A DNA stretch of 64,000 nt from an uncultured Actinomycetes bacterium. Lineage in GTDB: Bacteria; Actinomycetota; Thermoleophilia; RBG-16-64-13. Below are positions 16,420 to 54,474 of this stretch, piece by piece. The DNA is taken from the NCBI GenBank assembly GCA_963784835.1, contig CAWASM010000002.1:108930-172929 (forward strand). Direction: 5' to 3'. The notes under the pieces are model-generated. The model was not told the DNA's origin. It saw only the letters and a list, made by a program, of their open reading frames with translations, and ran no database searches. The position numbers and the translations under genes were made by a program. The stretch's first letter is position 1. Each line of letters begins with the position of its first letter.

Positions 16420-16427
16420 GAGAAGAA

Positions 16428-32186: not shown

Positions 32187-33197
32187 TCAGTCTAGTAGAC
32201 GGGCGCGATCACCAAGCTCCTCGTAGCGGAACAGCCGCCCGTAGTCCAGCAGGCCGGCCAGCGCCCCAGTGCGGAACACCGGGATGCCCTTCTCCTCTAG
32301 GATGGCCACCGGATTGAGTCCGCCCACCACAACAACGCCGAGGCGGCCTTCACTCACCGGGATCTCGAGCAGCGGGCGCCCTGGCCAGCCGACCAAGTGG
32401 ATGGCGCCCAGACCGACCTGCTCCATCTGGCGACCGAGATCCAGCACGTGGTCACGACTGTCGGCAGGCACCTCCCTGAAACTGGCGCCGATGAGGCCGT
32501 TGCCCGTCCGCGTGGCCCCCACGTAGTCGGTCATGACGCTGCGGATGAAGATTTCCAACGGGTCCAAGGTCGTCCCGTCGTAGTTGATCCACTCGGCGAA
32601 GCGGGTGGCTCTGTGCTCGCGCATCTCCAGCAGTCCCCCAAAACGAGAGTTGGTGGGGATGCCGTGGGCCACCAGCACGCCGTTCACCGTGATCGAGCAG
32701 ACGGTGGCTATGCCCACGCTGCCCTCAGGCACGGCCATCTGCCCTACGCTCTCTCCCGGCTGCAGCAGCGCGACCAGCTTGCCCATTGCGTAGCCGGCGG
32801 TGAACACCTGGCTCATGAGGGGGATGGACCGCTCGAGCTGGTCTCTGGGGATGACGCTCACATTCACCACGACCGTGCCCGTCTTCTTGAGAAGATCGAA
32901 GTTCATCTTGTAGGTCATTTGATCGATCTTGGCCGACAGGATGCCGACCTTCTCGAAGCCCCTGGACGTGTCAAGCTCGCTCAGGCCCCGCGGTGTGATA
33001 GCCCGCCCATTGCGGCCCAGGTTCTGCGTAAGACCCACCTTGTCCATGTCGAGCAGATGAAAGCGAACAGTCCTCTCGCTGACATCGTGGCCCATCGCTG
33101 AGAGCCGCTCCGTGATCTTGGAGCTGCCCAGCGGCCCTGCGGCCTCGCGGAGAATCCGCAGGATAGCGAGACGCTTCTCTTCGGTCCTCTCTCTCAT
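32187..33197 (-). CDS. NrpR-like nitrogen regulator (winged HTH plus two DUF128 domains)
   Basis: MRERTEEKRLAILRILREAAGPLGSSKITERLSAMGHDVSERTVRFHLLDMDKVGL then two DUF128-like halves; start at the internal Met of ORF 32187..33368. Confidence 0.55.
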   Translation of the reverse strand: MRERTEEKRLAILRILREAAGPLGSSKITERLSAMGHDVSERTVRFHLLDMDKVGLTQNLGRNGRAITPRGLSELDTSRGFEKVGILSAKIDQMTYKMNFDLLKKTGTVVVNVSVIPRDQLERSIPLMSQVFTAGYAMGKLVALLQPGESVGQMAVPEGSVGIATVCSITVNGVLVAHGIPTNSRFGGLLEMREHRATRFAEWINYDGTTLDPLEIFIRSVMTDYVGATRTGNGLIGASFREVPADSRDHVLDLGRQMEQVGLGAIHLVGWPGRPLLEIPVSEGRLGVVVVGGLNPVAILEEKGIPVFRTGALAGLLDYGRLFRYEELGDRARLLD

Positions 33198-33243
33198 AGG
33201 TGCGAATCTTACCAGGAAATCTGCCAATACCCGCGCCGGTAGC

Positions 33244-33255
33244 GGCAAGTTTGCC
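33244..33255. promoter_or_regulatory. Palindromic GGCAAGTTTGCC site 1 in the nrpR/hnd divergent region (candidate NrpR operator)
   Basis: Second identical site at 33378-33389; resembles the archaeal NrpR operator GGAA-N6-TTCC. Confidence 0.35.
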
Positions 33256-33377
33256 GCTCGCCCGTCAAGGCGCCGCCGAACCAGAAGCGGTGCAACATCG
33301 TGCGCAGCACCCAGTAGGGCGGCTTGCGCCGCCGGAGTGCGGCCGCCTATGAGAACGGCAATTGCCATACTGCTACC

Positions 33378-33389
33378 GGCAAGTTTGCC
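33378..33389. promoter_or_regulatory. Palindromic GGCAAGTTTGCC site 2
   Basis: Both copies share the extended context CGGCAAGTTTGCCGCT. Confidence 0.35.
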
Positions 33390-33672
33390 GCTATTGCCCC
33401 ACTAAGTAGCAACAACACTGGCTGCTTATGTTGCTGTTTGCGCGGACCTGCTGCTACAGTGGCGCGGCAAATCAATGCCGCAACTATGGATGCACGACGC
33501 GCCGGTCTTCAGAACGGGGCTGTGGGACGGAGTTCAAAGGCTCACTCCCTTCTCTCGGCTGGTGGCCGGAGGGTTTGGCAAGTCTCGGCCGGTACGCCTC
33601 GAGGGAGGCGGCGCGCCCATACCGCCCAGCAGGCAGCAAAGCGCATGAAGGTGAGGAGGGCCCGCAGAAAGT

Positions 33673-34188
33673 ATGAAAACGAGCAGCCTCGAAGCGATCC
33701 TAAAGAACCGTGGCACCGAGCCGTTCGCCATCATGGAGGTCCTACACGACGTGCAGGGACAGTACGGGTACCTCCCCGAGGAGGCGCTCCGTCGGGTCTC
33801 CGCCTCGTTCGATATCCCTCTCATCGAAGTATTTCGCCTGGCCAACTTCTACAGGGCGTTCAGCCTCAAACCCCGTGGGCGTCATCTACTGACGGTCTGC
33901 GCGGGCACGGCGTGCCACGTGCGGGGAGCGCCCAGGTTGCTGGACGAGGTGACCGCCCAGCTCAAGGTCCAGCCCGGCGATACCACCGAGGACAGAGCAT
34001 TCACCCTCGAGACCGTCAACTGCCTGGGAGCCTGTGCGCTGGGCCCAGTTGTCGTCGTCGACGGCACCTATCACGACCACATGACTCCGGCCAAGTTGAA
34101 GTCGCTGCTTGGGGATATCCGCGCAGGCGACTCTGCGACGGCCACAGAAGGCCTGGCCGGCAGCATGGAGGTGATCGCCAATGGCTAG
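33673..34188 (+). CDS. NuoE/HndA-like [2Fe-2S] NADH dehydrogenase 24-kDa-type subunit
   Basis: ...VCAGTACHVRGA...VNCLGACALGPVVVVDG. Confidence 0.7.
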   Translation: MKTSSLEAILKNRGTEPFAIMEVLHDVQGQYGYLPEEALRRVSASFDIPLIEVFRLANFYRAFSLKPRGRHLLTVCAGTACHVRGAPRLLDEVTAQLKVQPGDTTEDRAFTLETVNCLGACALGPVVVVDGTYHDHMTPAKLKSLLGDIRAGDSATATEGLAGSMEVIANG

Positions 34189-36025
34189 GCTGCAGAACCC
34201 TGAAGCCCTGACGTCATTCAGGGACGTGCTGGCAAGGGAGCGACAGGCTTGGCCCATGCGCATCACGCTATCGAGCGGCACGTGCGGGGAAGCCTCGGGC
34301 TCACTCGCAGTCCTTCAAGCCGTGCGTGCGCAGCTCGAGAAGAACGGCCTCGCCGACGAGGTCCATGTGCGCGTGACCGGCTGCCAGGGTTTCTGCCAGC
34401 AGGAGCCGCTGCTCACGGTCGAGCCATTGGACGTCCTGTACTGCAAGGTCACTCCCGAGGACGTCGCTGAGATCGTTTCTGAATCGGTGATGAACAGCCG
34501 GGTGGTCGAGAGGCTCTGCTACACCGACGAGACCACCGGTCGGACCACGCGCGCGCCCGCCGACCTGCCCTTCTTCGCGAAGCAAGACCGGGAACTGATC
34601 GGCCGAAACCGGCTAGTCGATCCCTGTGATATCGGGGACTACATCGCTTCCGGAGGTTACTCGGCATTGACCCGCGTCCTGACCATGGACCCCGAGGCCG
34701 TGATCGCCGAGATCAAGCTGTCAGGCCTGCGCGGCCGCGGGGGCGGCGGATACTCGACTGCCCGGAAGTGGGAGCAGTGCCGGCGCGCCCCCGGCAACGA
34801 GCGCTACGTGGTCTGCAACGCCGACGAGGGTGACCCCGGAGCCTATATGGACCGCGGGCTGCTCGAAGGCAATCCGCATTCCGTGCTCGAGGGGATGATG
34901 ATCGGCGCCTATGCCGTCGGCTCGAACCAGGGCTACGTGTACGTGCGGAACGAGTATCCCCTGGCCGTGATCAACACCCGCGAGGCAATCGAGCGAGCGC
35001 GGAGCCTCGGCCTCCTGGGCGACGACATCCTGGGCACCGGTTTCAGCTTCGACATCAAGGTGGCTCGCGGCGGTGGAGCCTTCATCTGCGGCGAGTCCAC
35101 CGCGCTCATGGCTTCGCTCGAAGGCGAGGTCGGCGAGCCCAGGCCCAAGGACGTCCACACGGTCGAACGCGGCTATCTCGATCTGCCGACCGCTCTCAAC
35201 AACGTGGAGACCTGGGCGAACGTGCCCCACATCATCCTGAAGGGGGCAACTTGGTTCGCGGGCAAGGGCACAGCGCAGAGCAAGGGCACCAAGGTCTTCG
35301 CCCTTACCGGCCACGTGAAGAACACAGGGCTAGTGGAGGTCGAGATGGGCACGACGCTCAGGCAGATCATCTTCGACATCGGCGGCGGTGCCCAGAACGG
35401 CAGAGCCATCAAAGCGGTGCAGACGGGTGGACCGTCGGGTGGCTGCCTGCCGGTCTCTCAGTTCGACCTCCCCGTTGACTACGAGGCCCTCGCCGCGGCT
35501 GGCTCCATGATGGGCTCGGGCGGCATGGTGGTCATGGACGAATCGGCCTGCATGGTCGATGTGGCCAAGTACTTCCTCCACTTCCTCAAGGAGGAGTCGT
35601 GCGGCAAGTGCGTGCCCTGCCGGCTCGGCACCGACCGGATGCTCGAGATCCTCACCGACATCACCGAGGGTCGTGGCAACACCGGGCAACTTGACACCCT
35701 CAAGGACTTGGCCTGGACGATGTCTGTCGGCTCGCTCTGCGCCCTGGGCAAGACCGCTCCCAACCCGGTTCTCTCGACCTTGCGCTACTTCGAGGACGAG
35801 TACCAGGCCCACATCAAAGACCACCGCTGCCCCGCCGGGGTCTGCAAGTCACTCGTGAAGTACGAGATCGACCCTGATCTGTGCGCAATGTGTGGAACGT
35901 GTGCTGATGCCTGTTCCCAAGGCGCCATCTTCGAGGACGACGCCTACCGCATAGACCCGGCCCTTTGTGAGGGATGCGGAGTGTGCGTTGAGTCGTGCCC
36001 CTCCGAAGCCATAAGCAGAGTCTGA
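34181..36025 (+). CDS. NuoF/HndC-like NAD(H)-binding FMN Fe-S subunit with N-terminal thioredoxin-like domain and C-terminal 2x[4Fe-4S]
   Basis: GRGGGGY(S)[49 protein letters not shown]; intact 614 aa. Confidence 0.75.
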   Translation: MARLQNPEALTSFRDVLARERQAWPMRITLSSGTCGEASGSLAVLQAVRAQLEKNGLADEVHVRVTGCQGFCQQEPLLTVEPLDVLYCKVTPEDVAEIVSESVMNSRVVERLCYTDETTGRTTRAPADLPFFAKQDRELIGRNRLVDPCDIGDYIASGGYSALTRVLTMDPEAVIAEIKLSGLRGRGGGGYSTARKWEQCRRAPGNERYVVCNADEGDPGAYMDRGLLEGNPHSVLEGMMIGAYAVGSNQGYVYVRNEYPLAVINTREAIERARSLGLLGDDILGTGFSFDIKVARGGGAFICGESTALMASLEGEVGEPRPKDVHTVERGYLDLPTALNNVETWANVPHIILKGATWFAGKGTAQSKGTKVFALTGHVKNTGLVEVEMGTTLRQIIFDIGGGAQNGRAIKAVQTGGPSGGCLPVSQFDLPVDYEALAAAGSMMGSGGMVVMDESACMVDVAKYFLHFLKEESCGKCVPCRLGTDRMLEILTDITEGRGNTGQLDTLKDLAWTMSVGSLCALGKTAPNPVLSTLRYFEDEYQAHIKDHRCPAGVCKSLVKYEIDPDLCAMCGTCADACSQGAIFEDDAYRIDPALCEGCGVCVESCPSEAISRV

Positions 36026-36035
36026 GAGGTCATAC

Positions 36036-36740
36036 ATGGCAAATATGGTGACCATAACTGTCGACGGGGCCCAGATCCAGACACCTGAGGGCTCCAGCGT
36101 GCTGGAGGCGGCCCTCGAGGCAGGCATCTGCATCCCCAATCTGTGTCACATGCCCGGCGTCAGCCCTATCGGGGCCTGCCGGGTGTGCATCGTCGAAGTG
36201 GTGGAGAACGGCGGGCGCAAGATGACAGCGTCGTGCACGTTGGAGGCCAGAGAGGGCCTGGTGGTGGAGGCGCACTCCGAAGCAGTCGTGCGCGCCCGGC
36301 ACAACATCGTCGAGCTCCTCCTGGCCGAGGCTCCAAACTCACGCGCCATCCAGGACCTGGCCGCGCGGGTGGGAGTGACCCGGTCGCGCTACCCCATGCG
36401 CAACAACGACTGCGTCCTCTGCGGCAAATGTGTGCGCATCTGTGGCGAGGTATGGCAGTCTCACTCCCTTGGCTTCGTGGGCCGAGGTGGCGACCGGCGC
36501 GTGGCCCTGCCCTTCGACAAGCGACCCGACCTCTGCAAGCGCTGCAACAACTGCGTGGAGGTCTGTCCCATGACCATCACCCCCTGCCCAGGCCCCCAGG
36601 CAGAACCGGGCATCTGCGGGTTTTGCGAATCCCAGACGACCATGGTCGAGAACATCCCCGACACGTGCGTCATGTGCGAACTGGGCCGAGGCTTCCAGTG
36701 CGTGCGGTGGCAGCTGCGCGGGGTCTTGGCCGAGAACTAG
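36036..36740 (+). CDS. NuoG-N-terminal/HndD-N-like [2Fe-2S]+[4Fe-4S] ferredoxin subunit
   Basis: ITVDGAQIQTPEGSSVLEAALEAGICIPNLCH...GACRVC; CVLCGKCVRIC; CKRCNNCVEVCP. Confidence 0.65.
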   Translation: MANMVTITVDGAQIQTPEGSSVLEAALEAGICIPNLCHMPGVSPIGACRVCIVEVVENGGRKMTASCTLEAREGLVVEAHSEAVVRARHNIVELLLAEAPNSRAIQDLAARVGVTRSRYPMRNNDCVLCGKCVRICGEVWQSHSLGFVGRGGDRRVALPFDKRPDLCKRCNNCVEVCPMTITPCPGPQAEPGICGFCESQTTMVENIPDTCVMCELGRGFQCVRWQLRGVLAEN

Positions 36741-36795
36741 TGACAACCGGTAAAGAGTCGAGTGATCCGTCGCTGACGATAAGAAGGAGCTCCTC

Positions 36796-38389
36796 GTGAA
36801 TCTACAGCAACCCAATGCGAACGACGTCTCCCAGACGTCCAACCGCTCTCGTAGCGTGGTACCCGGCTCTGGACTCTGCACCCGCTGCATCGACGGTTGC
36901 CGCGGCAACTGCGAGGTGTTCCAGGCCACCTTCCGCGGACGGGAGGTCATCTACCCAGGCCCGTTCGGCTCCATCACAGCCGGCGGCGACAAAGACTACC
37001 CGGTGGACTACTCGCACCTGAACATCCAGGGCTATGCCCTTGGCGGGGAAGGCCTGCCCGAGGGCGTTGTGGCCAATCCTGACACCTGCACCTTCCCCGA
37101 CGTCAACGTAGGGACCGAATACGGGTGGGACCTCAAGGTGAAGATGCTGGCGCCCATGTTCACCGGGGCCCTGGGCTCCACCGAGATTGCCCGCAGGAAC
37201 TGGGAGCACTTCGCGACGGGGGCGGCCATCAGCGGCGTGACCTGTGTGTGCGGCGAGAACGTCTGCGGAATCGACCCGGCGCTCGAACTCGATGCCAACG
37301 GCAAGATCAAGCGGTCGCCCGACATGGATCGCCGCATCGAGATCTACAAGCGCTATCACCGCGGCTACGGCGAGCTCTTGGTGCAGATGAACGTCGAAGA
37401 CACGCGGTTGGGCGTAGCCGAGTACGTGATCGACAAGCACGGCCTCGACACCATCGAACTGAAGTGGGGCCAGGGCGCCAAGTGCATCGGCGGAGAGATC
37501 AAGGTCAACTCGCTCGACCGGGCCCTCGAGCTGCAGAAGCGGGGCTATATTGTCACTCCCGACCCGTCCGACCCCATCACCCAGGCGGCCTTCAAGGACG
37601 GCGCGCTCAAGCAGTTCGAGCGTCACAGCCGCCTCGGCTTCATCGACGAGGAGGGCTTCCTGGCCGAGTGCCAGCGGCTGCGCAACCTGGGCTACAAGCG
37701 CATCACCCTCAAGACGGGCGCCTATGGTCTGCGCGAACTGGCGATGGCGCTCAAATGGGGCAGCGACGCCAAGATCGACCTGCTCACCATCGACGGCGCT
37801 CCCGGCGGCACCGGCATGAGCCCGTGGCGCATGATGGAGGAGTGGGGCATGCCCAGCCTCTACCTGCACTCCGCCGCGGCCGAGTTCGCCGCCAAGCTGA
37901 CAGCCCTGGGCAAGCGGGTGCCCGATCTGGCCTTCGGCGGCGGCTTCAGCGCCGAAGACCATATCTTCAAGGCCCTAGCTCTGGGTTCGCCCTTCGTCAA
38001 AGCGGTCTGCATGGGCCGAGCTCTCATGATCCCAGGCATGGTGGGCAAGAACGCCGGCGCTGTGGATGAACAACGGTGGACTGCCCAAGACTGTCGGTCA
38101 GTACGGCAACACCGCCGAAGAGATCTTCGTCTGCTGGGAGGAAGTCTCCGACATCGTCGGCAAGGACGAGATGAAGAGCTTCCCGCTCGGCGCCGTGGGT
38201 TTCTACTCCTATGCCCAGAAGCTCAGGGTGGGGCTCCAGCAGTTGATGGCCGGCGCGCGGGCGTTCAACGTCCAGTCCATCAAACGCGACGACCTCATGA
38301 GTCTCACCCAAGAGTGCGCTCAGGTCACGGGCATCCCCTACCTCATGGAGGCGTACCGCGCCGAGGCCGAGGCGATCCTGAACAGCTAG
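36796..38389 (+). CDS. Glutamate-synthase (GltB) FMN-domain family oxidoreductase with N-terminal Cys cluster; frameshift near 38060
   Basis: CTRCIDGCRGNCEV; GltS FMN-domain core ...DLLTIDGAPGGTGMSPW...; C-terminus recovered in the 38066..38389 frame. Confidence 0.6.
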
Positions 38390-38503: not shown

Positions 38504-39527
38504 TCAGTGCGTCGGACCGTAGGACCAAGTGTCCGTGTACAGCCACTCGTCGTTGTCGCCTCCGAAGAGGATCCACTTGTGGGCGCCGATGGCGTAGACC
38601 ATGCAGTGACCGGCGCGGCCGGACGGCAGCTCACCCGCGGGGCTCAACTCCGTCCAGTTGCCGGTGGCGGGGTTGAACGACCACGTGTCTTGCTTGATCT
38701 CTCCCACATGTTCATTCCCACCAAAGAGGATCGCCCTCGTACCGGCGGAGTTGTAGGCCAGGGCCGTGTATGCACGTTCGGACGGCTTGGCGCCGGCGGG
38801 GCTGAGTGGTATCCAGACGTTGCCGTCGGGGTCGTACACGCAAGTGTCGCCAAAACCCTCGCTACCCTCCCCTCCAAACAGGGTCGCCCTGCCGCTGCCC
38901 GGGTTGAAGGCAATGGCCGCGTTCTGGCGTGCGGAAGGTACGCTGCCGCCGGGAGTAAGCTGGGTCCACGTGTTGGCCGCGGGGTCATAGGCCCAGAGAT
39001 CGTTGAGCACCGTGCTACCGTGCGATCCTCCAAAGACGTACATCTTTGCCGTGCCGGGGTCAAAGAAGGCGCAATGGCGGTCGCGACGATGGGGGGCCGC
39101 CCGTAGGACTGAGTTGAGTCCAGGTGTCGGTGGGGGGGCTGTACGCCCAGAGATCGTTGAGATCACTCACCCAGTTCGACCCGCCGAACATGACCACTCG
39201 GCCGGTCTTCGGGTTGCAGGCCATGGCCGCAAGATCGCGGCCGGGCGGTGTGGGGCCACCGGGATCGAGGTTGGTCCATATGCTGGGTCCCGGCGGCGTG
39301 GTGGTGCCACTGGTCGCGGGCGACGCGGTTGTCTCGGGGGATGCGGTCGTCGTCACCTCGGGCGCCGTGGTAGTGCCAGACACCTCACTTGAGGATGTGA
39401 CAGTGACGCCCGTGGTGCCAGTGACCTGCTCTGTCGTCGTGGTAGTCGCCAAGTCCCCGCATCCGCCGACCCCCGACGCGATTGCGCCGCACAGCACGAG
39501 AATGACAGCAAGCCTCCATCGATTCAT
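38504..39527 (-). CDS. Kelch-repeat beta-propeller lipoprotein (frameshift near 39120)
   Basis: Lipobox GVGGCG; Thr-rich linker; repeated ...LNDLWAY..P..TWT.L.P.G..P..R... Kelch units. Confidence 0.55.
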
Positions 39528-41236: not shown

Positions 41237-42019
41237 CTACAGCAGTCCGGTCTGCCGGGCGATTTCTTCCACCTTCGCCGCCAACTCCGGGGCCACATCG
41301 TAGGCCGTCGCGGCGTGCATGTCGGCGTCAACGACACGACCGTCCAAGGGCAGCCAGCCGGCCAGCGGCAGAGCAGTAAGGTTTTCGCGGATGAAGGTCA
41401 GGTCCTCATCGCTGCGGACCTTGTTCGCCACCGCCCAAATGGCGGGTATCCCTATCTCATGGGCCAACTGCGCGATATCGGCGGCTACGCCCAGACTGCG
41501 CTGCCCGGGTTCGACCACGACGTACATGGCGTCGACCGCCCCGGCAGTGCCCCGCCCCAGATGCTCCAGACCGGCCACCATGTCGAGGAGAACGGTCTCC
41601 TGCTCGCGCAGCAGGAGATGGGTGACCAGCGCGCGGACCATGGTGTTCTCGGGGCAGACACAGCCGGCGCCCGCCCCCCGCACGGTGCCCATCGTGAGCA
41701 GACGTATGCCCCTGTGCGACACCGAGAACCTGCCGGGGATGTCATCTACGCGCGGATTGAGACGGAAGTAGCCTCCCGACTCACCGGGACGCGCGCCGGT
41801 GCGTTCTTCCACAAGGTCCTTCATCTCGACGATGGGCACAAGTTCGGCCAATAGAGCTGCGGGAAAACCGAGGGCTTCTCCCAGCGTGGGGTCGGGGTCC
41901 GCGTCGATGGCATAGACCGTTCTTCCCGCCGCCGCCAGCACGTACGCAAGCAACGCGCTGAACGTAGTCTTGCCGACTCCGCCTTTGCCGGCTACTGCGA
42001 CCTTTTGGCCTGGTTCCAT
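41237..42019 (-). CDS. cooC: CooC-type Ni-insertion ATPase (MinD/ParA family) for CODH
   Basis: Walker A AVAGKGGVGKTT; CxC motif AGCVCPEN. Confidence 0.7.
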   Translation of the reverse strand: MEPGQKVAVAGKGGVGKTTFSALLAYVLAAAGRTVYAIDADPDPTLGEALGFPAALLAELVPIVEMKDLVEERTGARPGESGGYFRLNPRVDDIPGRFSVSHRGIRLLTMGTVRGAGAGCVCPENTMVRALVTHLLLREQETVLLDMVAGLEHLGRGTAGAVDAMYVVVEPGQRSLGVAADIAQLAHEIGIPAIWAVANKVRSDEDLTFIRENLTALPLAGWLPLDGRVVDADMHAATAYDVAPELAAKVEEIARQTGLL

Positions 42020-42225
42020 CGTTCCTCGCCTAAACACTCGCGGGCCATGGCACACCACTGCGCGCAGGAAGGGATCTCCGCTTGATCGACATACTTCCCG
42101 CACTTGTGGCATTTCACTCGCTGCTCATCGGAGAATAACTCCACCTCAGCCCCGCAATTCGGGCAGAAGCAAGTGCTCACTTTCAGGTCTCTACCATCTT
42201 GGCCTGGACAGCGCACGTCGGGCAT
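41992..42225 (-). CDS. Small cysteine-rich (Zn-ribbon-like) protein overlapping the cooC start
   Basis: CFCPNCG...CHKCGK...CAQWCAMAREC. Confidence 0.35.
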   Translation of the reverse strand: MPDVRCPGQDGRDLKVSTCFCPNCGAEVELFSDEQRVKCHKCGKYVDQAEIPSCAQWCAMARECLGEERWNQAKRSQ

Positions 42226-42402
42226 AGGCTAGCCTCCTGTTATCCCGTGTGACGAGATAGTCCATGGGGGACTGGGAATCACGGTGCCCAGCTCGGGCGA
42301 CAGTCAAACCGGTCGGCAGGACGCCCACACAATATCACCAGTTGAAAAGTCCCCGATACAGTTATATGATGATAAGGTCACTAACCATAGGGGGATGCGT
42401 CC

Positions 42403-42834
42403 ATGTTCTGCCTTTCGAGCCGAGGGCGATTCGCGACGAGGATCCTCGTGCTGCTCGCGGCCGGCCCTGAGACGAAATGCTTCACCAAGCAGGAGATCGC
42501 AGATTGCGAAGGTTTGACGCCTGCGTACGTTCAGCAGCTTATGGGTAGTCTTCAGTCAGCCGGTCTTGTAATGGGCTTTCGCGGAAGGCAAGGAGGTTTC
42601 AGGCTTGCTCGGCCTCCGGAAAGCATCACGGTTGGGGAGACGCTACGGGTGATGGAAGGTTGCATCCGCTTAGCGCCTTGCCAGGAGGGCCAGAACTGCG
42701 AACGCATCGCGGATTGCCCCACCCGTCATGTCTGGCTGGGGGCCGCCGACCTTCTGCGTGACTACTTCCAGCAGACGACCATAGCCGAGTTGGCCGAGCG
42801 GGCCGGCCGGGGGAAGAAAGGTGTGAGCGTATGA
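42403..42834 (+). CDS. Rrf2-family transcriptional regulator
   Basis: MFCLSSRGRFATRILVLLAA N-terminal wHTH pattern; Cys-containing C-terminal region. Confidence 0.6.
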   Translation: MFCLSSRGRFATRILVLLAAGPETKCFTKQEIADCEGLTPAYVQQLMGSLQSAGLVMGFRGRQGGFRLARPPESITVGETLRVMEGCIRLAPCQEGQNCERIADCPTRHVWLGAADLLRDYFQQTTIAELAERAGRGKKGVSV

Positions 42835-43163
42835 ACGCACTCGTCGTCGAAGTGCCGGCTATGTACGGCGACCATCATGTGCTTCGCGTGCGCCAGGCAC
42901 TGCTCGGCGTAGAAGGCGTCGACCAGGTGACGGCGAGCGCGGCGCGGCGCAGAGTGGCGGTGAGGTTCGACGAAAAGGTCACCTCTGCCGAGTCCATCCG
43001 TACAGCGCTGGAAAAGGCCGGTTACATTCCGGACGAAATCATCCCCGCTCCCCTGTTCCCTAAAAGGCACAAGGACGGTTCAGCCTGGTTCACGGTGCTC
43101 GATCGGGTCACTACCACTGAACTCAAAGACCGCGAGATGGCCGGGGACTTCCGGCGCTACTAG
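42831..43163 (+). CDS. HMA-like (ferredoxin-fold) small protein with MYGDHH in place of the MxCxxC metal site
   Basis: VVEVPAMYGDHHVLRVRQALLGVEGVDQVTAS...RVAVRFDEKVTSAESIRTALEKAGY follows the HMA beta-alpha-beta-beta-alpha-beta spacing. Confidence 0.35.
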   Translation: MNALVVEVPAMYGDHHVLRVRQALLGVEGVDQVTASAARRRVAVRFDEKVTSAESIRTALEKAGYIPDEIIPAPLFPKRHKDGSAWFTVLDRVTTTELKDREMAGDFRRY

Positions 43164-43205
43164 GCGCGGCGTCCCCGTTCCAGCGCATTCGAAGAGGAGA
43201 GGAAG

Positions 43206-45194
43206 ATGCCTGAACGCAAAAGTGCAGACGCGGCGGCGTGTGAGGTGCTCGGTTCGTGTGAAGGACTCGTCGAGACCGCCTTCGACCGCGCCGCGAACAT
43301 CCTACCGTGCCCCATCGGGGCCGAGGGCATCTGCTGCAAGAACTGCGCAATGGGCCCTTGCCGCCTCATGGGCGACACCCCGCGCGGGGTGTGCGGAGCC
43401 ACCCAGTCCACAGTCGCGGCCCGCAACTTCGCCCGGGCGGTAGCCGCCGGCGTCTCGGCGCACTCAGATCACGGTCGAGGGATGGCGCTCGCCCTGCTGG
43501 CGGTAGCCAAGGGCGAAACGCATGGCTTCGGCATCCGCGATGAGGAGAAGCTCAGGGCCGTGGCCGGTCACATGGGCATCAAGACAGGCGACCGTCCTGT
43601 GTTGGACATCGCCCTCGATGTCGCCGAGGCCGCCCTGGCCGAGTTCGGCAGGCAGACCGGCGAACTGATGTATCTCTCGCGGGCGAGCGCGGCGCAGCAG
43701 GAACGTTGGCACAAAGAGAAGGTCGCTCCCCGCGGCATCGACCGCGAGGTGGTGGAGATGATGCACCGCACCCACATGGGCGTCGACCAAGACGCAGAGC
43801 ACCTTCTGGACCAGGTGCTCTGCACGTCCCTCGCGGACGGCTGGGGCGGGTCCATGCTGGCCACCGACATCAGCGACATCCTGTTCGGCACCCCGACTCC
43901 GCTGCAGAGCAGGGTGAACCTGGGAGTCCTGAAGGACGACGAGGTCAACATCGTGATCCACGGCCACGAGCCGATCGTAGCGGAGATGATCGTAGCGGCG
44001 TCCACCGACCCCGAACTGATCGAGTACGCGAAGAGCAAGGGCGCAGAGGGCATCAACCTGGCCGGCATCTGCTGCACCGCCAACGAGGTCCTCATGCGCC
44101 ATGGCATCCCTCCCGCGGGCAACTTCCTTTCGCAGGAGTTGGCCATCGCGACCGGCGCCATCGAGGCCATGATCGTCGACGTGCAGTGCGTCATGCAGGC
44201 GCTCGCCGAAGTGGCGACCCACTACCACACCAAACTCATAACCACCTCCCCGAAGGCGAAGATAGAGGGTGCGGTGCACATGGAGTTCGACGAGCACGAT
44301 GCCTACCAGAGCGCGAAGGACATCGTGCGTGCCGCAATAGACAACTACCCCAATCGCAAGAAGACGGTGATCCCGCAGACCGACGAGGCCCTCATAGCCG
44401 GCTTCTCGCATGAGTATGTGCGCTACATGCAGGGCGGGCACTATCGCGGCTCGTTCCGTCCTTTGAACGACGCCATAGCCGCCGGTCGCATCCGGGGTCT
44501 GGCCGCGGTGGTGGGCTGCAACAACCCGCGCGTGACGCAGGACGCCCCCACCACCGAGATCATCGCGGAACTGATCAAGAACGACGTCCTGGTCGCCGTC
44601 ACCGGCTGCGCAGCCACTGGAGCGGCGAAGTACGGCTATCTGAAGCCGGAGTTCATGGACCAGGCTGGTGCCGGGCTGCGCGAGGTGTGCGAGGCCATCG
44701 GCATCCCGCCGGTTCTGCACGTCGGTTCGTGCGTGGACAACTCCCGCATCCTCACGATCCTCACCGAATGCGCCACTGAGGGCGGCCTAGGCGAGGACAT
44801 CTCCGACTTGCCCGCTGTGGGCATCTGCCCTGAGTACATGTCCGAGAAGGCGCTCGCCATCGGTTCTTACTGCGCGGCTTCCGGCGCCTACGTACTGTTC
44901 GGGCTGCCCTCCCCGGTGGGAGGAAGCCAGGAGGTCAAGGACCTCATGCTGGAAGGCTGGACGGCGCGGTTCGGAGGCGGCATCGAGTTCGAGCCCAACA
45001 CCCAGGCGCTGATCAAGAAGGCCATCGCCCACATAGACGCTAAGCGGGCGGAGCTCGGCCTGGCCGAGTACGACCCGGCGCGGTTTGGCGAGAGTGGCGA
45101 CACTCTGATGAACGAGCTGGAGTCCGAAGTACCGGCGGACGAGCCGGTGAGCATCTATTCGGCACACAAGCAGCCGGTCGCATCGGAGGTGTAG
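43206..45194 (+). CDS. cooS: Anaerobic Ni,Fe carbon monoxide dehydrogenase catalytic subunit (CooS/AcsA)
   Basis: ILPCPIGAEGICCKNCAMGPCRL B/D-cluster motifs; GHEPI...; C-cluster Cys pattern; intact 662 aa. Confidence 0.85.
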   Translation: MPERKSADAAACEVLGSCEGLVETAFDRAANILPCPIGAEGICCKNCAMGPCRLMGDTPRGVCGATQSTVAARNFARAVAAGVSAHSDHGRGMALALLAVAKGETHGFGIRDEEKLRAVAGHMGIKTGDRPVLDIALDVAEAALAEFGRQTGELMYLSRASAAQQERWHKEKVAPRGIDREVVEMMHRTHMGVDQDAEHLLDQVLCTSLADGWGGSMLATDISDILFGTPTPLQSRVNLGVLKDDEVNIVIHGHEPIVAEMIVAASTDPELIEYAKSKGAEGINLAGICCTANEVLMRHGIPPAGNFLSQELAIATGAIEAMIVDVQCVMQALAEVATHYHTKLITTSPKAKIEGAVHMEFDEHDAYQSAKDIVRAAIDNYPNRKKTVIPQTDEALIAGFSHEYVRYMQGGHYRGSFRPLNDAIAAGRIRGLAAVVGCNNPRVTQDAPTTEIIAELIKNDVLVAVTGCAATGAAKYGYLKPEFMDQAGAGLREVCEAIGIPPVLHVGSCVDNSRILTILTECATEGGLGEDISDLPAVGICPEYMSEKALAIGSYCAASGAYVLFGLPSPVGGSQEVKDLMLEGWTARFGGGIEFEPNTQALIKKAIAHIDAKRAELGLAEYDPARFGESGDTLMNELESEVPADEPVSIYSAHKQPVASEV

Positions 45195-45198
45195 GCGG

Positions 45199-47475
45199 AT
45201 GTCGAGGCACATAGCAAGAGCCGCCATGCGCGGCGCCAACAGCATCGTGAACGAGGCCGAGCAGATGCTGCAGGCGGCCATCACCGAATTCGGCCCTGAT
45301 AAGCCGGTCGCCTTCACGAACACCGCCTATCACCTGCCCGTGATCCTCGGTTTCACGGGGATGGAGGTAGACAACCTGGGGCAGTTGCAACAGGCGCTCG
45401 CCCAAGCCCGGCGGCTGCTGGCCGAGGCCCCGGGAGATAGCCTGTGGCTCCCCTATCTAGGCGAGACTCTGGACAGCGGTGCCGCCACTCTCCTTGCCGC
45501 GGAGGCGATCGAAGCCATCCGTTTCGTGCGCGGCGAACAGCCCGAGCCCATCCCGGGGCTGAGCCTCACCGGCACGAGCTACCACCCCGAAGGCAACGGC
45601 GGCGGCCCCGGAGGCTACGCCAACGGACCTATCGACGACATCCAGTTGCGTGCCTGGGGCATCCAGTTGGTCGACGGCCGCATGCCCGGATTCGCCGCCA
45701 TCGTCGGCGCGGCCCGCAGCAACGAGGCTGCGGTGTCCATCGTGCGTGAACTGCAGAAGCGCAACATCCTGGTGTTCCTCTCGGGCAACGTGAACGGCCG
45801 CAGCATCATCCATCAGCTGATGGAAGAGGGCGTCGAGATGGGCTACGACACCTATATCGTTCCCTTCGGCACCGACACCATCTCGGCTATCTACGCGCTG
45901 GGCTTCGCCACCCGGTCGGCCCTGACCTTCGGCGGCATGTCCGGGGGCCAGATCCGCAATATCCTCCTCTACAACAAGTTCCGGGTGTTCGCCTTCGTCC
46001 TTGCCTTGGGCGAGGTGGACGACCTCAAGTACGCGGCAGCCGCGGGGGCGATCAACTACGGCTTCCCCGTCATCGCCGACACCGTCATCCCCCAGATCCT
46101 GCCCACCGGCGTGACCGCCTACGAGCACGTGGTGAGCATGCCCTTTGACGACATCGAAGCCGACAACGACACCGAGAAGGCGCGCAAGTTGGTGCAGCGG
46201 GCTATCGAGGTGCGAGGCGTCAAGATCAAGATCACCGACGTACCTATCCCGGTGCCCTACGGCAGCGCCTTCGAGGGCGAACGGGTGCGCAAGGCCGACA
46301 TGCGCCTGGAATTCGGCGGCTCAAAGGCCAAGGCGTTCGAGTACCTGCGCATGGCCGGGCTGGACGAGATCGAGGACGGCCGCATCGAAGTGGTGGGGCC
46401 GGGCATCGATGAGGTGCCCGAGGGCGGCGCCACTAACCTGGGAATCCTGGTCGAGGTGGCCGGACGCAAAATGCAGGAGGACTTCGAGCCGGTGCTAGAG
46501 CGCCAGATGCATTACTTCGTCAACGGCGCGTCGGGCATACAGCACATAGGCCAGCGTGACATCACCTGGATCCGTTTCAGCAAGGCGGCCATCGACAAGG
46601 GCTTCGCGCTCAAGAACCTCGGCGACATCCTCTACGCACGCTTCCATGCCGAGTTCGGCGCCATCGTGGACAAAGTGCAGGTGACGTTGTTCACCGACCC
46701 CGAGAAGTTCGAGGAATGGTTGGCCAAGGCGCGCCTGGCTTACCAGAACCGAAACCTGCGCCTAGCCGACATGGTGGATGCATCGGTGGACGAGTTCTAC
46801 AGTTGCACGCTGTGCCAGAGCTTCGCGCCCAACCACGTATGCGTCATCTCGCCCGAGCGTCTGGGACTGTGCGGCGCCTACAACTGGCTCGACTGCAAGG
46901 CTTCCAACCAGATCAACCCCACCGGGCCCAACCAGCCCATCCCCAAGGGCATCTGCATCGATTCCACGCTGGGGGTATACCAAGGAGCGAACGAGTTCGC
47001 CTACCAGAACACTCACCAGTCGGTAGAACGCTTGGCTCTGTACTCCATCATGCAGGACCCCATGACCGCCTGCGGCTGCTTTGAATGCATCGTGATGGTC
47101 GTCCCCGAAGCCAACGGGGTCATGGTGGTCTCGCGCGAAGACCCGAGCATGACGCCGGCCGGCATGACCTTCTCTACGCTCGCCGGCGTCGCCGGCGGCG
47201 GACTGCAGACGCCGGGCATGATGGGCGTGGGCAAGTACTACCTGCTGAGCCGCAAGTTCATCTCGGCCGAGGGCGGCTTCAAACGCGTGGTCTGGATGTC
47301 GAGCAACCTGAAGGTCATGATGGCGGACGATCTCAAGGCCGTCTGCGAGCGGGAAGGCGACCCTGGCCTGCTGGACAAGATCGCCGACGAGCGGTCGGTG
47401 ACCACGGTGGAGGAGCTCGTGCCCTTCCTGGAAGAGCATGAGCATCCCGCGCTCACCATGGACCCGATCTTCTGA
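45199..47475 (+). CDS. acsB: Acetyl-CoA synthase subunit (AcsB; A-cluster)
   Basis: 758 aa; A-cluster ...SCTLCQSFAPNHVCVISPERLGLCGAYNWLDC... and Cys-Gly-Cys bridge ...TACGCFECI. Confidence 0.85.
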   Translation: MSRHIARAAMRGANSIVNEAEQMLQAAITEFGPDKPVAFTNTAYHLPVILGFTGMEVDNLGQLQQALAQARRLLAEAPGDSLWLPYLGETLDSGAATLLAAEAIEAIRFVRGEQPEPIPGLSLTGTSYHPEGNGGGPGGYANGPIDDIQLRAWGIQLVDGRMPGFAAIVGAARSNEAAVSIVRELQKRNILVFLSGNVNGRSIIHQLMEEGVEMGYDTYIVPFGTDTISAIYALGFATRSALTFGGMSGGQIRNILLYNKFRVFAFVLALGEVDDLKYAAAAGAINYGFPVIADTVIPQILPTGVTAYEHVVSMPFDDIEADNDTEKARKLVQRAIEVRGVKIKITDVPIPVPYGSAFEGERVRKADMRLEFGGSKAKAFEYLRMAGLDEIEDGRIEVVGPGIDEVPEGGATNLGILVEVAGRKMQEDFEPVLERQMHYFVNGASGIQHIGQRDITWIRFSKAAIDKGFALKNLGDILYARFHAEFGAIVDKVQVTLFTDPEKFEEWLAKARLAYQNRNLRLADMVDASVDEFYSCTLCQSFAPNHVCVISPERLGLCGAYNWLDCKASNQINPTGPNQPIPKGICIDSTLGVYQGANEFAYQNTHQSVERLALYSIMQDPMTACGCFECIVMVVPEANGVMVVSREDPSMTPAGMTFSTLAGVAGGGLQTPGMMGVGKYYLLSRKFISAEGGFKRVVWMSSNLKVMMADDLKAVCEREGDPGLLDKIADERSVTTVEELVPFLEEHEHPALTMDPIF

Positions 47476-47509
47476 CGTAAGCCGGATCACACGGGAAAGG
47501 AGATTCCGG

Positions 47510-48478
47510 ATGTCTGTAGCAGTGCCTGAAGTCAAGGAGAGTTGGAGCGGCAAGATCACCGAAGTGACCCTTGGGGCCGTTCCGGCGAACGGCGGCACTA
47601 GGGGCAGCACAGTCACCGTGGGCGGCGAGACGGGTCTACCGTTTCTGCACTTCGAGGGGTCCACGCCTCACCGGCCGGCCATCGCAGTCGAGGTGAGCGA
47701 TCGTAGCCCTGGCGAGTGGTCACGCCTGCTGCTGGACGCCTGGGGAGACGCTGTGAAAGACCCGGCGGTCTGGGCGGCGGCGGCCGAAAAGGCAGGGGCC
47801 GACCTCATCGCCTTGTCGCTTGACAGCGCCCATCCGGAACGGGGCGACACGGGGGCCAAGGAGGCAAAACAGACGGTCCGACGCGTGCTCGAGGCCACCA
47901 CCCTGCCTCTCATCGTCTACGGTCCCGGTCAGCGAGACAAGGACAACGAGGTGCTGGTCGCGGCGGCGGAAGAGGCTGCCGGAGAACGGATCGCCCTGGG
48001 CAACTGCGAAGACAAGAACTATCGCACCATCGTCGCAGCCGCCATGGCCAACGAGCATGTGATCATCGCCAAGAGCCCCATCGATGTGAACCTCGCCAAG
48101 CAGCTGAACGTACTTATTGGCGACATGGGCTTGGCCCGGGATCGCATCCTCATCGACCCCACCACCGGTGCTCTCGGCTACGGCCTGGAATACAGCTACT
48201 CGGTGATGGAGCGCATCCGTCTGGCCGCTTTCGCCGGCGACGCTACTCTGCAGCAGCCGCTGGTGCTCACGGTGGGCTACGAGGCCTGGCGCGCCAAGGA
48301 GGCGCGCACCAACGAGGAGGTGCCGGCCGAGTGGGGCGACTGGAAGCAGCGGGCGCTCCTGTGGGAGTCGACCACCGGCGTGACACTTCTGGGAACGGGC
48401 GCCGACATCCTTGTGTTGCGCCATCCCGACACCATCCCTCTTGTAAGACGGGTCATCGACAAGCTCATGGCTGCGTGA
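47510..48478 (+). CDS. acsD: Corrinoid iron-sulfur protein small subunit (AcsD)
   Basis: TIM-barrel CFeSP small-subunit pattern; RBS AAAGGAG; internal ATG at 47510 of ORF 47438..48478. Confidence 0.7.
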   Translation: MSVAVPEVKESWSGKITEVTLGAVPANGGTRGSTVTVGGETGLPFLHFEGSTPHRPAIAVEVSDRSPGEWSRLLLDAWGDAVKDPAVWAAAAEKAGADLIALSLDSAHPERGDTGAKEAKQTVRRVLEATTLPLIVYGPGQRDKDNEVLVAAAEEAAGERIALGNCEDKNYRTIVAAAMANEHVIIAKSPIDVNLAKQLNVLIGDMGLARDRILIDPTTGALGYGLEYSYSVMERIRLAAFAGDATLQQPLVLTVGYEAWRAKEARTNEEVPAEWGDWKQRALLWESTTGVTLLGTGADILVLRHPDTIPLVRRVIDKLMAA

Positions 48479-48491
48479 AAAGGAGAGCCAC

Positions 48492-51823: not shown

Positions 51824-51831
51824 GCCTCACC

Positions 51832-52620
51832 ATGGCAGTGGCCGGCAAGGGCGGCACCGGCAAGACCACCTTCTCCGCCCTCGCGGTGAAGTACCTGCGC
51901 GAGACCGGGATGACCCCCATCCTCGCTATCGATGCGGACCCCAGCTCCAATCTCAACATGGCTCTGGGCATGGAACTGCACGAGACAGTCGGACAGATCC
52001 GCGAGGACACCCGCGACCAAGTCATGGGCGGCACGTTCCAAACGGGCATGTCCAAACCGGATTGGTTCCAGTACCAGGTGGAGCAATGCCTGGTGGAGGG
52101 CGATGAGGTCGACCTCCTGGCCATGGGCCGTCCCGAAGGGCCCGGCTGCTACTGCGCGGCCAACCACATGTTGCGCCAGGCTATCGACCGGTTGGGCGAT
52201 TCGTACCGAGCCGTCGTCATCGACAACGAAGCCGGCTTGGAGCACATCAGCCGCCAGACCACCAGGAATGTCGACTGGCTCTTCATAGTCAGCGATCCCA
52301 GCCAACGGGGGCTGGCCGCCGCCGAGCAAGTCGTGCGTCTTATCGACTCGCTGGGGACGCGCATAGGGCGGGTGGGCCTCATCGTCAATCGGGTGGACGG
52401 GGAGTTACCCGATGCGTTTCGGGAGCGCATCGCCGGGCTCGGCGTCCCCCTGCTGGGCGTGCTGCCTCAGGATCAAGCCCTGAGTCACCTGGACGCGGAG
52501 GGTCTGCCCCTCGTCACCCTGGACGACTCGTCGAAAGTCTATCCCGCGGTGAAGATCATCCTGGAGGCTGCTCTCACCTCAGCCTCGGCACCGGCGCAGC
52601 TCAAGGAGGAAGCATGCTGA
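51832..52620 (+). CDS. Second CooC-family ATPase (AcsF-like, for ACS Ni site)
   Basis: AVAGKGGTGKTT; GPGCYCAAN. Confidence 0.7.
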   Translation: MAVAGKGGTGKTTFSALAVKYLRETGMTPILAIDADPSSNLNMALGMELHETVGQIREDTRDQVMGGTFQTGMSKPDWFQYQVEQCLVEGDEVDLLAMGRPEGPGCYCAANHMLRQAIDRLGDSYRAVVIDNEAGLEHISRQTTRNVDWLFIVSDPSQRGLAAAEQVVRLIDSLGTRIGRVGLIVNRVDGELPDAFRERIAGLGVPLLGVLPQDQALSHLDAEGLPLVTLDDSSKVYPAVKIILEAALTSASAPAQLKEEAC

Positions 52621-53770: not shown

Positions 53771-53957
53771 AGCGTACGTCCGAGCTTCGGCGACCGACGC
53801 CGAGGGCAAGCTGCTTATGGAGAACGTCATTCGCGTAGAAGTAGACGGCGACCGGGTTCATCTCTCGTCGCTGCTGGGCGACTCGGAGGAGCTGCAGGCC
53901 CGCATCAGCTTCGTCAGCTTCGTCGACTCAAGACTCGTTCTGGAGACGTCAAGATGA
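53757..53957 (+). CDS. CooT-like small Ni-binding CODH accessory protein
   Basis: 66 aa starting MCLAKAY (Cys2), size and pattern of the CooT family. Confidence 0.5.
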   Translation: MCLAKAYVRASATDAEGKLLMENVIRVEVDGDRVHLSSLLGDSEELQARISFVSFVDSRLVLETSR

Positions 53958-54448: not shown

Positions 54449-54474
54449 CGTGCGGACCGCGGGGAGGAAGCAAA

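Follow-up and report, generated by a model that had tools for sequence, protein, structure and literature searches.

The BfuABC core of electron-bifurcating enzymes is known to act with a variety of partners, namely hydrogenase, formate dehydrogenase, Nfn, F420, Wor, Bam, Por, Mbh and carbon monoxide dehydrogenase (CODH), and 18 of the 57 Bfu clades are still uncharacterised (PMC9304861). In the paper that carries accession 9MQX, which describes WorABC, WorA is a short BfuA-type protein and a zinc finger and helix at its C-terminus recruit the catalytic module (PMC12318220). Archaeal NrpR is a 2-oxoglutarate-dependent repressor of nif and glnA (PMC9765008). In the literature that could be searched, NrpR has been described experimentally in methanogens only. 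Here we analyse a 64,000-nt stretch of contig CAWASM010000002.1 (the window; all coordinates are positions in it), in which a gene for a bacterial NrpR-like regulator faces an operon encoding a Bfu core (BfuC, BfuB and a short BfuA) and a protein remotely related to the FMN domain of glutamate synthase, hereafter GltBL. Based on sequence comparisons, we propose, with a probability of about 45%, that the locus specifies an NrpR-repressed Type-2 Bfu enzyme that would link NADH and ferredoxin to a GltS-like reductive amination. A sequence-only reading of the same DNA had suggested an NADH-driven, nitrogen-regulated, glutamate-synthase-like complex, an interpretation that our analysis supports in part. 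The five genes lie at 32187-38389 in the order which that reading gave, as confirmed by the open reading frame (ORF) listing and by Pfam and NCBIfam scans:

32187-33197, minus strand: nrpR-like gene, 336 aa, winged helix and one NRD, assigned to the NrpRI type (PF08461, PF01995, 3NEK)
33673-34188, plus strand: BfuC, NuoE-like, thioredoxin-like [2Fe-2S] subunit, 171 aa (PF01257)
34181-36025, plus strand: BfuB, NuoF-like, NADH-FMN subunit, 614 aa (PF01512, SLBB, PF10589, two Fer4 motifs)
36036-36740, plus strand: short BfuA, NuoG-N/HoxU-like, 234 aa (Fer2_4 and Fer4)
36796-38389, plus strand: GltB-FMN-like gene (GltBL), frameshifted; 530 aa in homologues (PF01645, partial)

Conservation of the operon

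The gene arrangement is not due to chance, as the NuoE-NuoF-NuoG(N)-GltBL operon recurs in relatives. Among six sampled homologues of BfuB with 62-81% identity (loci L083-L088), five carry it (L084-L088), and it is also found in L001-L003 and L009. The genes for the NuoE-like and NuoF-like proteins overlap by 8 nt in the window, and the GltBL gene lies directly 3' of the BfuA gene. At L036 an nrpR gene is placed between NuoG(N) and GltBL; at L007 the genes upstream of GltBL were only partly matched. Viewed from GltBL, 11 of 77 loci have Bfu genes within 10 kb, and in 5 of these the distance is at most 500 bp.

Some of these loci have additional features. Directly downstream of GltBL in L084 (a Thermoleophilia metagenome-assembled genome, MAG) is a gene at 10430-12577 for a 715-aa GltD/NfnB-like protein with NADH_4Fe-4S, Fer4_20 and Pyr_redox_2 domains, and in L088 a class-I GATase-containing gene occupies that place. 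The Phycisphaerae MAG locus L083 (4000-12791) has nrpR divergent from BfuC-BfuB-BfuA, followed by amtB-glnK-amtB-glnK. Genes for 2-oxoacid:ferredoxin oxidoreductase stand immediately before BfuCBA in L006 (872-5957), L021 and L050, an arrangement named 'Por-Bfu' (PMC9304861). In L006 and L021 it lies 2-4 kb from nrpR-hisF-GltB-like, and in L050 it follows downstream of the GltB-like gene at a distance of about 8 kb, a layout which hints at a combined neighbourhood of 2-oxoacid synthesis and amination.

The first three genes encode a Bfu-type core

The NuoE-like protein matches PF01257 (E 1.4e-46) and has Cys 76, 81, 117 and 121 for a [2Fe-2S] cluster; its top NCBIfam model is HoxE, below the cut-off of that model. 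BfuB combines PF01512, PF10531 (SLBB), PF10589 and two copies of PF00037. The N-terminal 2Fe-2S ferredoxin domain of cluster B5 is recognised by NF041612 at residues 39-112 (Cys 35/68/72/113), the NADH_4Fe-4S (B1) cysteines are 474/477/480/520, and two CxxCxxCxxxC motifs are present at the C-terminus (Cys 568-606). This corresponds to the InterPro architecture by which BfuB is recognised, that is, Nuo51 FMN, SLBB, NADH_4Fe-4S and a C-terminal 2x[4Fe-4S] domain (PMC9304861). The B2/Zn site consists of C457 and H544-x5-C550-x4-C555. Its H544/C550/C555 spacing equals that of H525/C531/C536, which Schut et al. give as specific to bifurcating BfuB (PMC9304861). Over its full length, the best solved match of BfuB is the electron-bifurcating HydB of T. 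kivui (8a6t_B, E 2e-216), and 7t2r_B (NiFe-HydB), 9mqx_B and 9n5u_B (NfnB) are also matched in full; complex I subunits reach E 1e-101 over the core region only.

BfuA has the [2Fe-2S] cysteines, two CxxCxxC...C [4Fe-4S] motifs and a C-terminal CxxC...CxxC element, and no motif for a His-ligated (His/Cys) cluster between residues 80 and 126. Among solved structures, it matches best the NuoG-like chain 9mqx_A of 247 aa (E 3e-34). Type 2 is defined by a BfuA with A1, A2 and A4 and without A3 and A5, the catalytic site being on an extra subunit, and this is the pattern found here. Judged from sequence by the published criteria, BfuCBA is a Type-2 BfuABC core of the HydBC-type, electron-bifurcating family. 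The full-length BfuB match and the short Type-2 BfuA back the earlier suggestion of a possibly ferredoxin-linked or bifurcating system. The description of the three subunits as a complete NADH dehydrogenase module needs correction, because they are not of the complex I type.

A complex I NuoEFG module was rejected: the scores fall below the equivalog cut-offs (TIGR01959, 438 bits against 558; NuoG, 94 against 470), the NuoF-like protein has extra Bfu-type cluster domains, the NuoG-like protein is truncated to 234 aa, and no other nuo genes are adjacent. Membership in the HoxEFU diaphorases was likewise set aside, given NCBIfam scores far below the cut-offs, the Bfu-specific cluster domains and the absence of adjacent hydrogenase genes.

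A tail of BfuA, ELGRGFQC(V/A)RWQ, is common to the aligned BfuAs linked to GltBL and is kept in L083. It is missing from one aligned Dehalococcoidia BfuA of the Por-Bfu type, a neighbour of 2-oxoacid:ferredoxin oxidoreductase genes. Together with the C-terminal CxxC...CxxC, this arrangement recalls the zinc finger and helix of WorA, and on that analogy the tail may serve to dock the catalytic partner.

The window contains a second, divergent BfuCBA-like set at 53954-57000, which is 37-59% identical to the GltBL-linked set, directly follows the Wood-Ljungdahl genes described below and has no obvious catalytic partner (NuoE-like, 53954-54448; NuoF-like, about 54475-56315 across three frames; NuoG-N-like, about 56414-56950). 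Because of this second set, we regard the GltBL-linked set as a dedicated paralogue.

GltBL, a conserved relative of the glutamate synthase FMN domain

GltBL matches Glu_synthase/PF01645 with 51 bits against a cut-off of 20.4, over profile positions 195-309 only (115 of 369). No NCBIfam model exists for the protein. Its homologues share 79-94% identity with it, and each has a length of about 530 aa. In hhalign, GltBL aligns with the FMN subunits of split glutamate synthases (GOGAT) at 98.6%, E 1.2e-15 and 24% identity over 293 columns; these subunits (cluster 7) came from related loci and themselves match GltS of A. brasilense with E 1.9e-74. A direct search of PDB with the single sequence gave no match. 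The AlphaFold2 model is an FMN-type TIM barrel (pLDDT 81.7). By sequence, GltBL is a remote, very strongly conserved relative of the GltS 'synthase' domain.

Several residues of the GltS active site are kept. Q226-G-A-K229 corresponds to Q934/K937 of GltS and Q969/K972 of the Synechocystis enzyme, R249 to R957 and R992, and the flavin motifs DGxxGGTG and GG are present. In GltS, the Lys and Arg equivalent to K229 and R249 bind the two carboxylates of 2-oxoglutarate. The family carries an insertion of its own at the loop region that contacts the amidotransferase in GltS, and a conserved FERHSR insertion is present. Close to the N-terminus is a C-x2-C-x3-C-x3-C motif, in which C28, C31 and C39 are invariant and C35 is found in at least 90% of sequences; it falls in the sole low-confidence part of the model.

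The family is compact and exceptionally well conserved. Out of 1.84 billion representatives, only 1074 match it at E <= 0.001. It occurs in no fewer than 598 genomes at species level, and between genomes that carry the labels Actinomycetota, Planctomycetota, Dehalococcoidia, Nitrospirota, Thermodesulfobacteriota, Bacillota and Bacteroidota the protein keeps 74-92% identity. The C-terminus is its more variable part. As the earlier reading had noted, the operon contains no GATase or GltD parts: neither GATase nor GXGXG domains or subunits are encoded in the operon or elsewhere in the window, and no GltD-like gene is present in the window, where the BfuCBA module stands in its place. A GltD-like gene does occur downstream in L084.

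The NrpR-like regulator and its candidate operators

The regulator matches the PF08461 winged helix over the full profile (E 1.9e-16) and the NRD, DUF128/PF01995, as a single copy over profile positions 1-236 of 238 (E 2.4e-77), in agreement with the family named by the sequence-only reading. It also matches the sole solved NRD, that of M. jannaschii MJ0159 (3NEK), with E 1.4e-22. A longer ORF reaching to 33368 is not the gene: all close homologues have 336 aa, and we therefore place the start at 33197. The earlier description, a winged helix plus two DUF128 domains, holds for the winged helix and fails for the domain count. NrpR of M. maripaludis, the prototype, carries two NRDs. With one NRD stretch in 336 aa, the regulator is therefore, by its sequence, an NrpR-family protein of the NrpRI type.

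The intergenic region between nrpR and the operon spans 475 bp and holds three palindromes, which we consider candidate NrpR operators, together with a promoter-like element:

33243-33256: palindrome O1, CGGCAAGTTTGCCG; candidate operator for autoregulation, as it lies about 50 bp before the start of nrpR
33377-33390: palindrome O2, CGGCAAGTTTGCCG, upstream of the promoter-like site of the operon
33431-33460, plus strand: promoter-like element TTGCTG-18 nt-TACAGT, a conserved block in the alignment with L001-L003; putative
33465-33480: palindrome O3, CGGCAAATCAATGCCG (GGCA-N6-TGCC); candidate operator over the transcription start

All three palindromes stand out as conserved islands when the window is aligned with L001-L003. 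O1 and O2 belong to a 34-nt direct repeat, and O3 begins 5 nt past the -10-like hexamer. The exact 14-mer CGGCAAGTTTGCCG has two copies, both intergenic, and none elsewhere in the 64 kb. The pattern GGCAANNTTGCC is matched twice in the window against 0.06 expected, a count reached by none of 100 shuffles, and CGGCAAATCAATGCCG once against 0.13 expected. In other phyla (e.g. L011, L032, L036, L050, L061), the regions upstream of GltBL and nrpR genes show an enrichment of GGCAA-N2/N4-TTGCC of about 10-fold. A de novo search for enriched palindromes with 5-nt half-sites returned GGCAA-N4-TTGCC alone; the motif varies by lineage and a universal operator could not be defined. The operator of M. maripaludis NrpR is reportedly GGAA-N6-TTCC (Lie and Leigh), and O3 has a like 4-N6-4 geometry.

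A scan for consensus sigma-70 promoters and terminators gave nothing above background and did not pick up the TTGCTG/TACAGT element. The 5' region of about 200 nt yielded no Rfam match at E <= 1 and a fold z-score of -0.37 in a search for a riboswitch or structured leader. Within the leader of the operon, TGGCAAGTCTCGGCCGG at 33576-33592 is conserved in L001-L003; it is not a palindrome and has no Rfam match.

Nitrogen genes around GltBL

The link to nitrogen regulation that the earlier reading proposed is borne out by the intergenic palindromes, by the proximity of nrpR and by the other neighbours of GltBL. In 34 of the 77 loci an NrpR gene is found no more than 3 kb from GltBL, and in 21 the distance is at most 500 bp; these loci come from several phyla and the relative orientations vary. 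Recurrent neighbours, identified by Pfam or read from the sequences, are glnA, amtB, glnB and the gene for glutamate dehydrogenase (GDH). A split GOGAT set is also found near GltBL (GATase_2, Fer4 plus Glu_synthase, GXGXG, Pyr_redox_2 and Fer4), as are HisF/HisH-like genes, GAF-ANTAR regulators and KaiC-like regulators.

A HisF-like gene (PF00977) separates nrpR from the GltB-like gene in Dehalococcoidia and, within the split GOGAT, also separates the GATase_2 subunit gene from that of the FMN subunit (L006, L021, L022, L024, L027, L044, L056 and L074 (about 8200-10000); L051, L062, L028 and L066). Some Dehalococcoidia loci have a HisH-like class-I GATase near it. These genes may be either ordinary histidine genes or a nitrogen-specific paralogue. 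HisF/HisH were considered as a possible ammonia-channelling partner; as neither gene is found in the window or beside GltBL in the Bfu-linked operons L084-L088, their recurrence is left unexplained.

Two further proteins adjoin the GltB-like gene, one of 884 aa with a PPDK_N ATP-grasp domain in Dehalococcoidia and one of 433 aa of the HTH-cupin type in Nitrospirota-labelled loci. Their genes are immediately upstream in L029, L037, L047, L051, L052, L058, L062, L073 and L079 and in L054, L055, L059, L067, L072, L075 and L078; in L071 the gene is adjacent on the opposite strand. By eye, the two N-termini are alike and have a KaiC/RecA-like look, with no Pfam match there. These neighbours may represent a second regulatory layer.

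A model for the NrpR-Bfu-GltBL system

How might such a locus work? Under nitrogen sufficiency, the NrpR-like repressor would be bound at the three conserved GGCA(A)-N-(T)TGCC palindromes, the first in front of nrpR, the second upstream of the operon promoter and the third overlapping that promoter, and would repress both the operon and its own gene. Rising 2-oxoglutarate would release it. The four operon products would then assemble into one Type-2 Bfu enzyme, in which BfuC and BfuB provide the NADH-FMN and ferredoxin-reactive core and the short BfuA acts as an iron-sulfur wire and docking adaptor. Electrons would be exchanged between NADH and ferredoxin at BfuBC and would pass on through the BfuA clusters to an iron-sulfur site formed by the N-terminal Cys4 motif of GltBL and from there to its FMN. 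GltBL is envisaged to reduce the imine of 2-oxoglutarate and free ammonia to glutamate, which is the synthase half-reaction of GOGAT. The outcome would be ATP-free ammonium assimilation.

We calculated a potential of about -133 mV for the couple 2-oxoglutarate plus NH4+/glutamate under standard conditions, which falls to about -325 to -400 mV at 1-10 uM NH4+, 0.1-1 mM 2-oxoglutarate and 30-100 mM glutamate. NADH is at -280 mV and ferredoxin at -500 mV (PMC9304861). Because the calculated value lies below NADH and close to the mean of NADH and ferredoxin, a Bfu-type donor is plausible. Ferredoxin might, conversely, be reduced by the reaction if the nitrogen came from glutamine or if ammonium were high. 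In a wider and more tentative version of the model, which we hold to be possible but on the doubtful side, the system would constitute a third route of ammonium assimilation besides GDH and glutamine synthetase (GS)-GOGAT: a confurcating Bfu enzyme that would combine the electrons of NADH and reduced ferredoxin for an ATP-free amination of 2-oxoglutarate at micromolar ammonium, within a bacterial NrpR regulon shared across several anaerobic phyla, with the BfuA tail and the N-terminal cluster of GltBL as docking and electron-transfer interface.

A number of observations weigh against the proposed enzyme. GltBL is only remotely GltS-like: its family profile reaches the solved GltS with no better than E 0.018, and the cysteines of the GltS [3Fe-4S] cluster (C-x5-C-x4-C; C1102/C1108/C1113 in A. 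brasilense), which are present in the cluster-7 proteins and in 2vdc, are absent from the aligned segment GRALMIPGMVGKNAGLWMNNGG. The earlier label of a stand-alone glutamate-synthase FMN/Fe-S domain was therefore overstated. Gln943 of GltS (Gln978 in Synechocystis) is replaced by Glu. The predicted fold does not discriminate function, since other FMN TIM barrels rank equally: Foldseek returned lactate monooxygenase, glycolate oxidase and IDI-2, with GltS at rank 16 (and the highest identity), all at a TM-score of about 0.42. The partnership with Bfu is not general either. No Bfu genes are found within 10 kb of GltBL in 66 of the 77 loci, GltBL is alone in one 8.7-Mb contig (taken as planctomycete, its named close relatives being Planctomycetota), and L083 has the NrpR-BfuCBA unit without an adjacent GltBL. 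As most GltBL loci lack nearby Bfu genes, the NADH (Bfu) module is an optional partner; GltBL would thus be a self-contained enzyme, for which one BfuB clade acquired a dedicated Bfu partner. Moreover, it is not obvious why a further glutamate-forming enzyme should be needed, since the gene cluster that holds GltBL often includes GDH, GS and a split GOGAT as well. Finally, the GltBL gene is frameshifted in the window sequence.

Alternative explanations

GltBL might be an alternative synthase subunit of a glutamine-dependent split GOGAT of the archaeal/clostridial type, using borrowed GATase and GXGXG partners with Bfu in place of GltD. We consider this unlikely. It would account for the Dehalococcoidia loci L028, L051 and L062 (and probably L066, where the GltBL ORF was not clustered), in which GltBL is part of a gene string with GATase_2, Fer4-Glu_synthase, GXGXG, Pyr_redox_2 and Fer4, and for the GltD-like and class-I GATase-containing genes next to GltBL in L084 and L088. 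However, genes for GATase, GXGXG and GltD are found neither in the window nor beside GltBL in L085-L087, the co-occurring split GOGATs have an FMN subunit of their own, which makes GltBL an extra copy, and the insertion of GltBL at the amidotransferase-contacting loop region also argues against such a partner.

Just as unlikely, in our view, is that the two halves of the operon are co-regulated and otherwise separate, BfuCBA being an NADH:ferredoxin oxidoreductase that supplies reduced ferredoxin and GltBL a free-standing ferredoxin-dependent enzyme. A separate GltBL would fit its stand-alone occurrence in most genomes, the layout of L083, where NrpR, BfuCBA and amtB-glnK are found without an adjacent GltBL, and the Fer4 protein that is its frequent neighbour in Dehalococcoidia; ferredoxin-reducing bifurcating systems induced by nitrogen limitation, such as FixAB, have been reported (PMC10746287). 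On the other hand, every family member described so far requires a module for a third substrate besides its BfuABC core (PMC9304861), and the four genes are contiguous with small gaps in the window and in L084-L088. The tail shared by GltBL-linked BfuAs is retained in L083 as well, which suggests that a dedicated partner is encoded elsewhere in that genome.

Still less probable, in our estimate, is that GltBL acts on another nitrogen-related substrate, whether by reduction of a different 2-oxo acid or imine, by a transfer like that of N-methylglutamate synthase or by an oxidative deamination feeding NAD+ and ferredoxin. GltB-domain homologues with other chemistry exist, N-methylglutamate synthase being an example, and the remote similarity to GltS, a fold in common with 2-hydroxy-acid oxidases and IDI-2, the Gln943 to Glu exchange and the conserved FERHSR insertion would all be compatible with a change of substrate. 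Against this, the Lys/Arg pair that binds the 2-oxoglutarate carboxylates in GltS is kept, the associated regulator family senses 2-oxoglutarate in archaea, and the neighbouring genes belong to glutamate and glutamine metabolism.

The frameshift corresponds to the following feature:

38053-38062, plus strand: 1-nt insertion (GCCGGCGCTG) in the GltBL gene at about 38059 (tblastn frame switch, relatives' DNA)

Of the 530 codons, those up to 421/422 are read in the original frame, which the extra base then changes. Read on without correction, the ORF ends at 38433 with an Arg-rich tail, and the conserved C-terminus continues in the next frame to a stop at 38389. A tblastn search with a 94% identical homologue of 530 aa (P0001) switches frame after residue 421, and at the place of GGC-GCTG-TGG in the window, relatives have a codon of 3 nt instead of the 4 nt. 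As a shifted product of 545 aa is on record from the 621,741-bp source contig, the extra base is in the public assembly itself. Other genes of the window are split in a similar way. The Kelch-repeat gene at 38504-39527 (minus strand) and the molybdopterin oxidoreductase gene at 16230-18495 (plus strand) are each broken into two ORFs that overlap and are read in different frames. If the GltB-like gene and the second NuoF are counted as well, the 64 kb contain at least five apparent frameshifts, which suggests an indel-prone (long-read) assembly. The related MAG loci L001 and L002 show the same fragmentation, a pattern typical of indel errors in assemblies. For these reasons we consider an assembly indel more likely than a pseudogene. 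That the GltB-like gene is a recent pseudogene and the operon non-functional in this organism seems improbable, since, for all that the insertion is in the public assembly and the C-terminal part is 83% identical to P0001 against 97% for the N-terminal part, the shifted frame is open and conserved up to the normal stop, the C-terminus is more variable family-wide, and at least three other genes of the window (Kelch, molybdopterin oxidoreductase, second NuoF) are split alike, as are those of L001-L002.

Genomic context of the window

Besides the locus, no nitrogen genes are found in the window, which has a G+C content of 64%. A cluster at 41237-53534 (about 41-53.5 kb) encodes the carbonyl branch of the Wood-Ljungdahl pathway, with CODH/acetyl-CoA synthase (ACS), corrinoid protein, RACo, CooC and methyltransferase genes:

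41237-42112, minus strand: CooC-like ATPase
43206-45194: CODH
45199-47475: ACS
47438-49841: two CdhD/corrinoid iron-sulfur protein (CFeSP) subunits
49580-51823: RACo activator
51634-52620: second CooC-like gene
52614-53534: pterin-binding methyltransferase

The nearest loci come from MAGs labelled Actinomycetota, 'Actinobacteria bacterium RBG_16_64_13' or Thermoleophilia. This context fits an anaerobic, actinomycete-like lineage with the Wood-Ljungdahl pathway. At its left end (2-370) the window cuts through a gene for a 2-oxoacid:ferredoxin oxidoreductase beta subunit; the fragment that it contains is 50% identical to the Dehalococcoidia representative of this subunit.

Implications

Literature searches that combined Bfu or bifurcation with glutamate synthase, or that used bacterial NrpR or the family annotation strings, returned no paper describing the operon or the GltBL family, and those on NrpR in bacteria yielded no description of the operon. 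In the main text and one supplement of PMC9304861, neither 'glutamate' nor a GltS-FMN-like partner is mentioned. Since all its parts come from families already known, the system is no categorical novelty. New would be the Type-2 Bfu partner, the subfamily within the GltS FMN-domain superfamily and the bacterial NrpR target.

What would follow if the proposed enzyme exists? The Bfu family would gain a function in nitrogen assimilation, and electron bifurcation or confurcation would be tied directly to ammonium assimilation in energy-limited anaerobes. GltBL is among the most conserved uncharacterised enzymes that we met in this analysis. As it is routinely annotated as 'glutamate synthase', metabolic reconstructions may be wrong on glutamate formation. 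With its regulator, the three candidate operators and the operon as target, the locus would also offer a bacterial NrpR regulon that is open to experimental test.

Comparison with known systems

The regulator resembles NrpR of Methanococcus maripaludis and NrpRI of Methanosarcina mazei in its winged helix, its NRD and its homology to 3NEK. As there, nrpR genes adjoin nitrogen genes, and the candidate operators are palindromes with 4-nt half-sites, one of them with an N6 spacer. Unlike NrpR of M. maripaludis, the protein of the window is bacterial and has one NRD, as NrpRI does, and the half-sites read GGCA here and GGAA there. Whereas archaeal NrpR controls nif or glnA, nrpR of the window faces a redox enzyme operon.

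GltBL shares with the FMN domain of the GltS alpha subunit, and with the FMN subunit of the split archaeal-clostridial GOGAT, a predicted FMN TIM barrel, the QGAK, DGxxGGTG and GG motifs and the Lys/Arg pair; like GOGAT FMN subunits, it is found among nitrogen-assimilation genes. In contrast to GltS, it has neither the 3Fe-4S motif nor a Fer4 domain and carries the N-terminal C-x2-C-x3-C-x3-C motif instead, and its operon lacks the GATase, GXGXG and GltD partners of GOGAT.

The HoxEFU module of bidirectional [NiFe] hydrogenases has the same three-subunit layout, and HoxE and HoxU are the top NCBIfam names for the NuoE-like and NuoG-like proteins; the F subunit of the window differs by its Bfu-specific N- and C-terminal cluster domains. 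The NfnABC/Stn transhydrogenase (PMC7483475) likewise joins a Bfu core to a module borrowed from glutamate synthase, and 9n5u_B (Nfn) is among the top matches of BfuB. There, however, the borrowed part is a homologue of GltD, the beta subunit, and NADP(H) is used, whereas here it would be a homologue of the FMN domain of the alpha subunit, made as a separate protein. A close parallel is provided by Type 2 BfuABC, that is, WorABCSL and the predicted Por-Bfu of Dehalococcoides (PMC9304861, PMC12318220). In common with these, the operon encodes all cofactor motifs of BfuC and BfuB, a short BfuA without the A3 and A5 motifs and with a C-terminal Cys4 element, and a putative catalytic subunit alongside. 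In contrast to the known Type 2 members, the catalytic partner would be a GltS-FMN-like TIM barrel, in an operon placed under an NrpR-type regulator.

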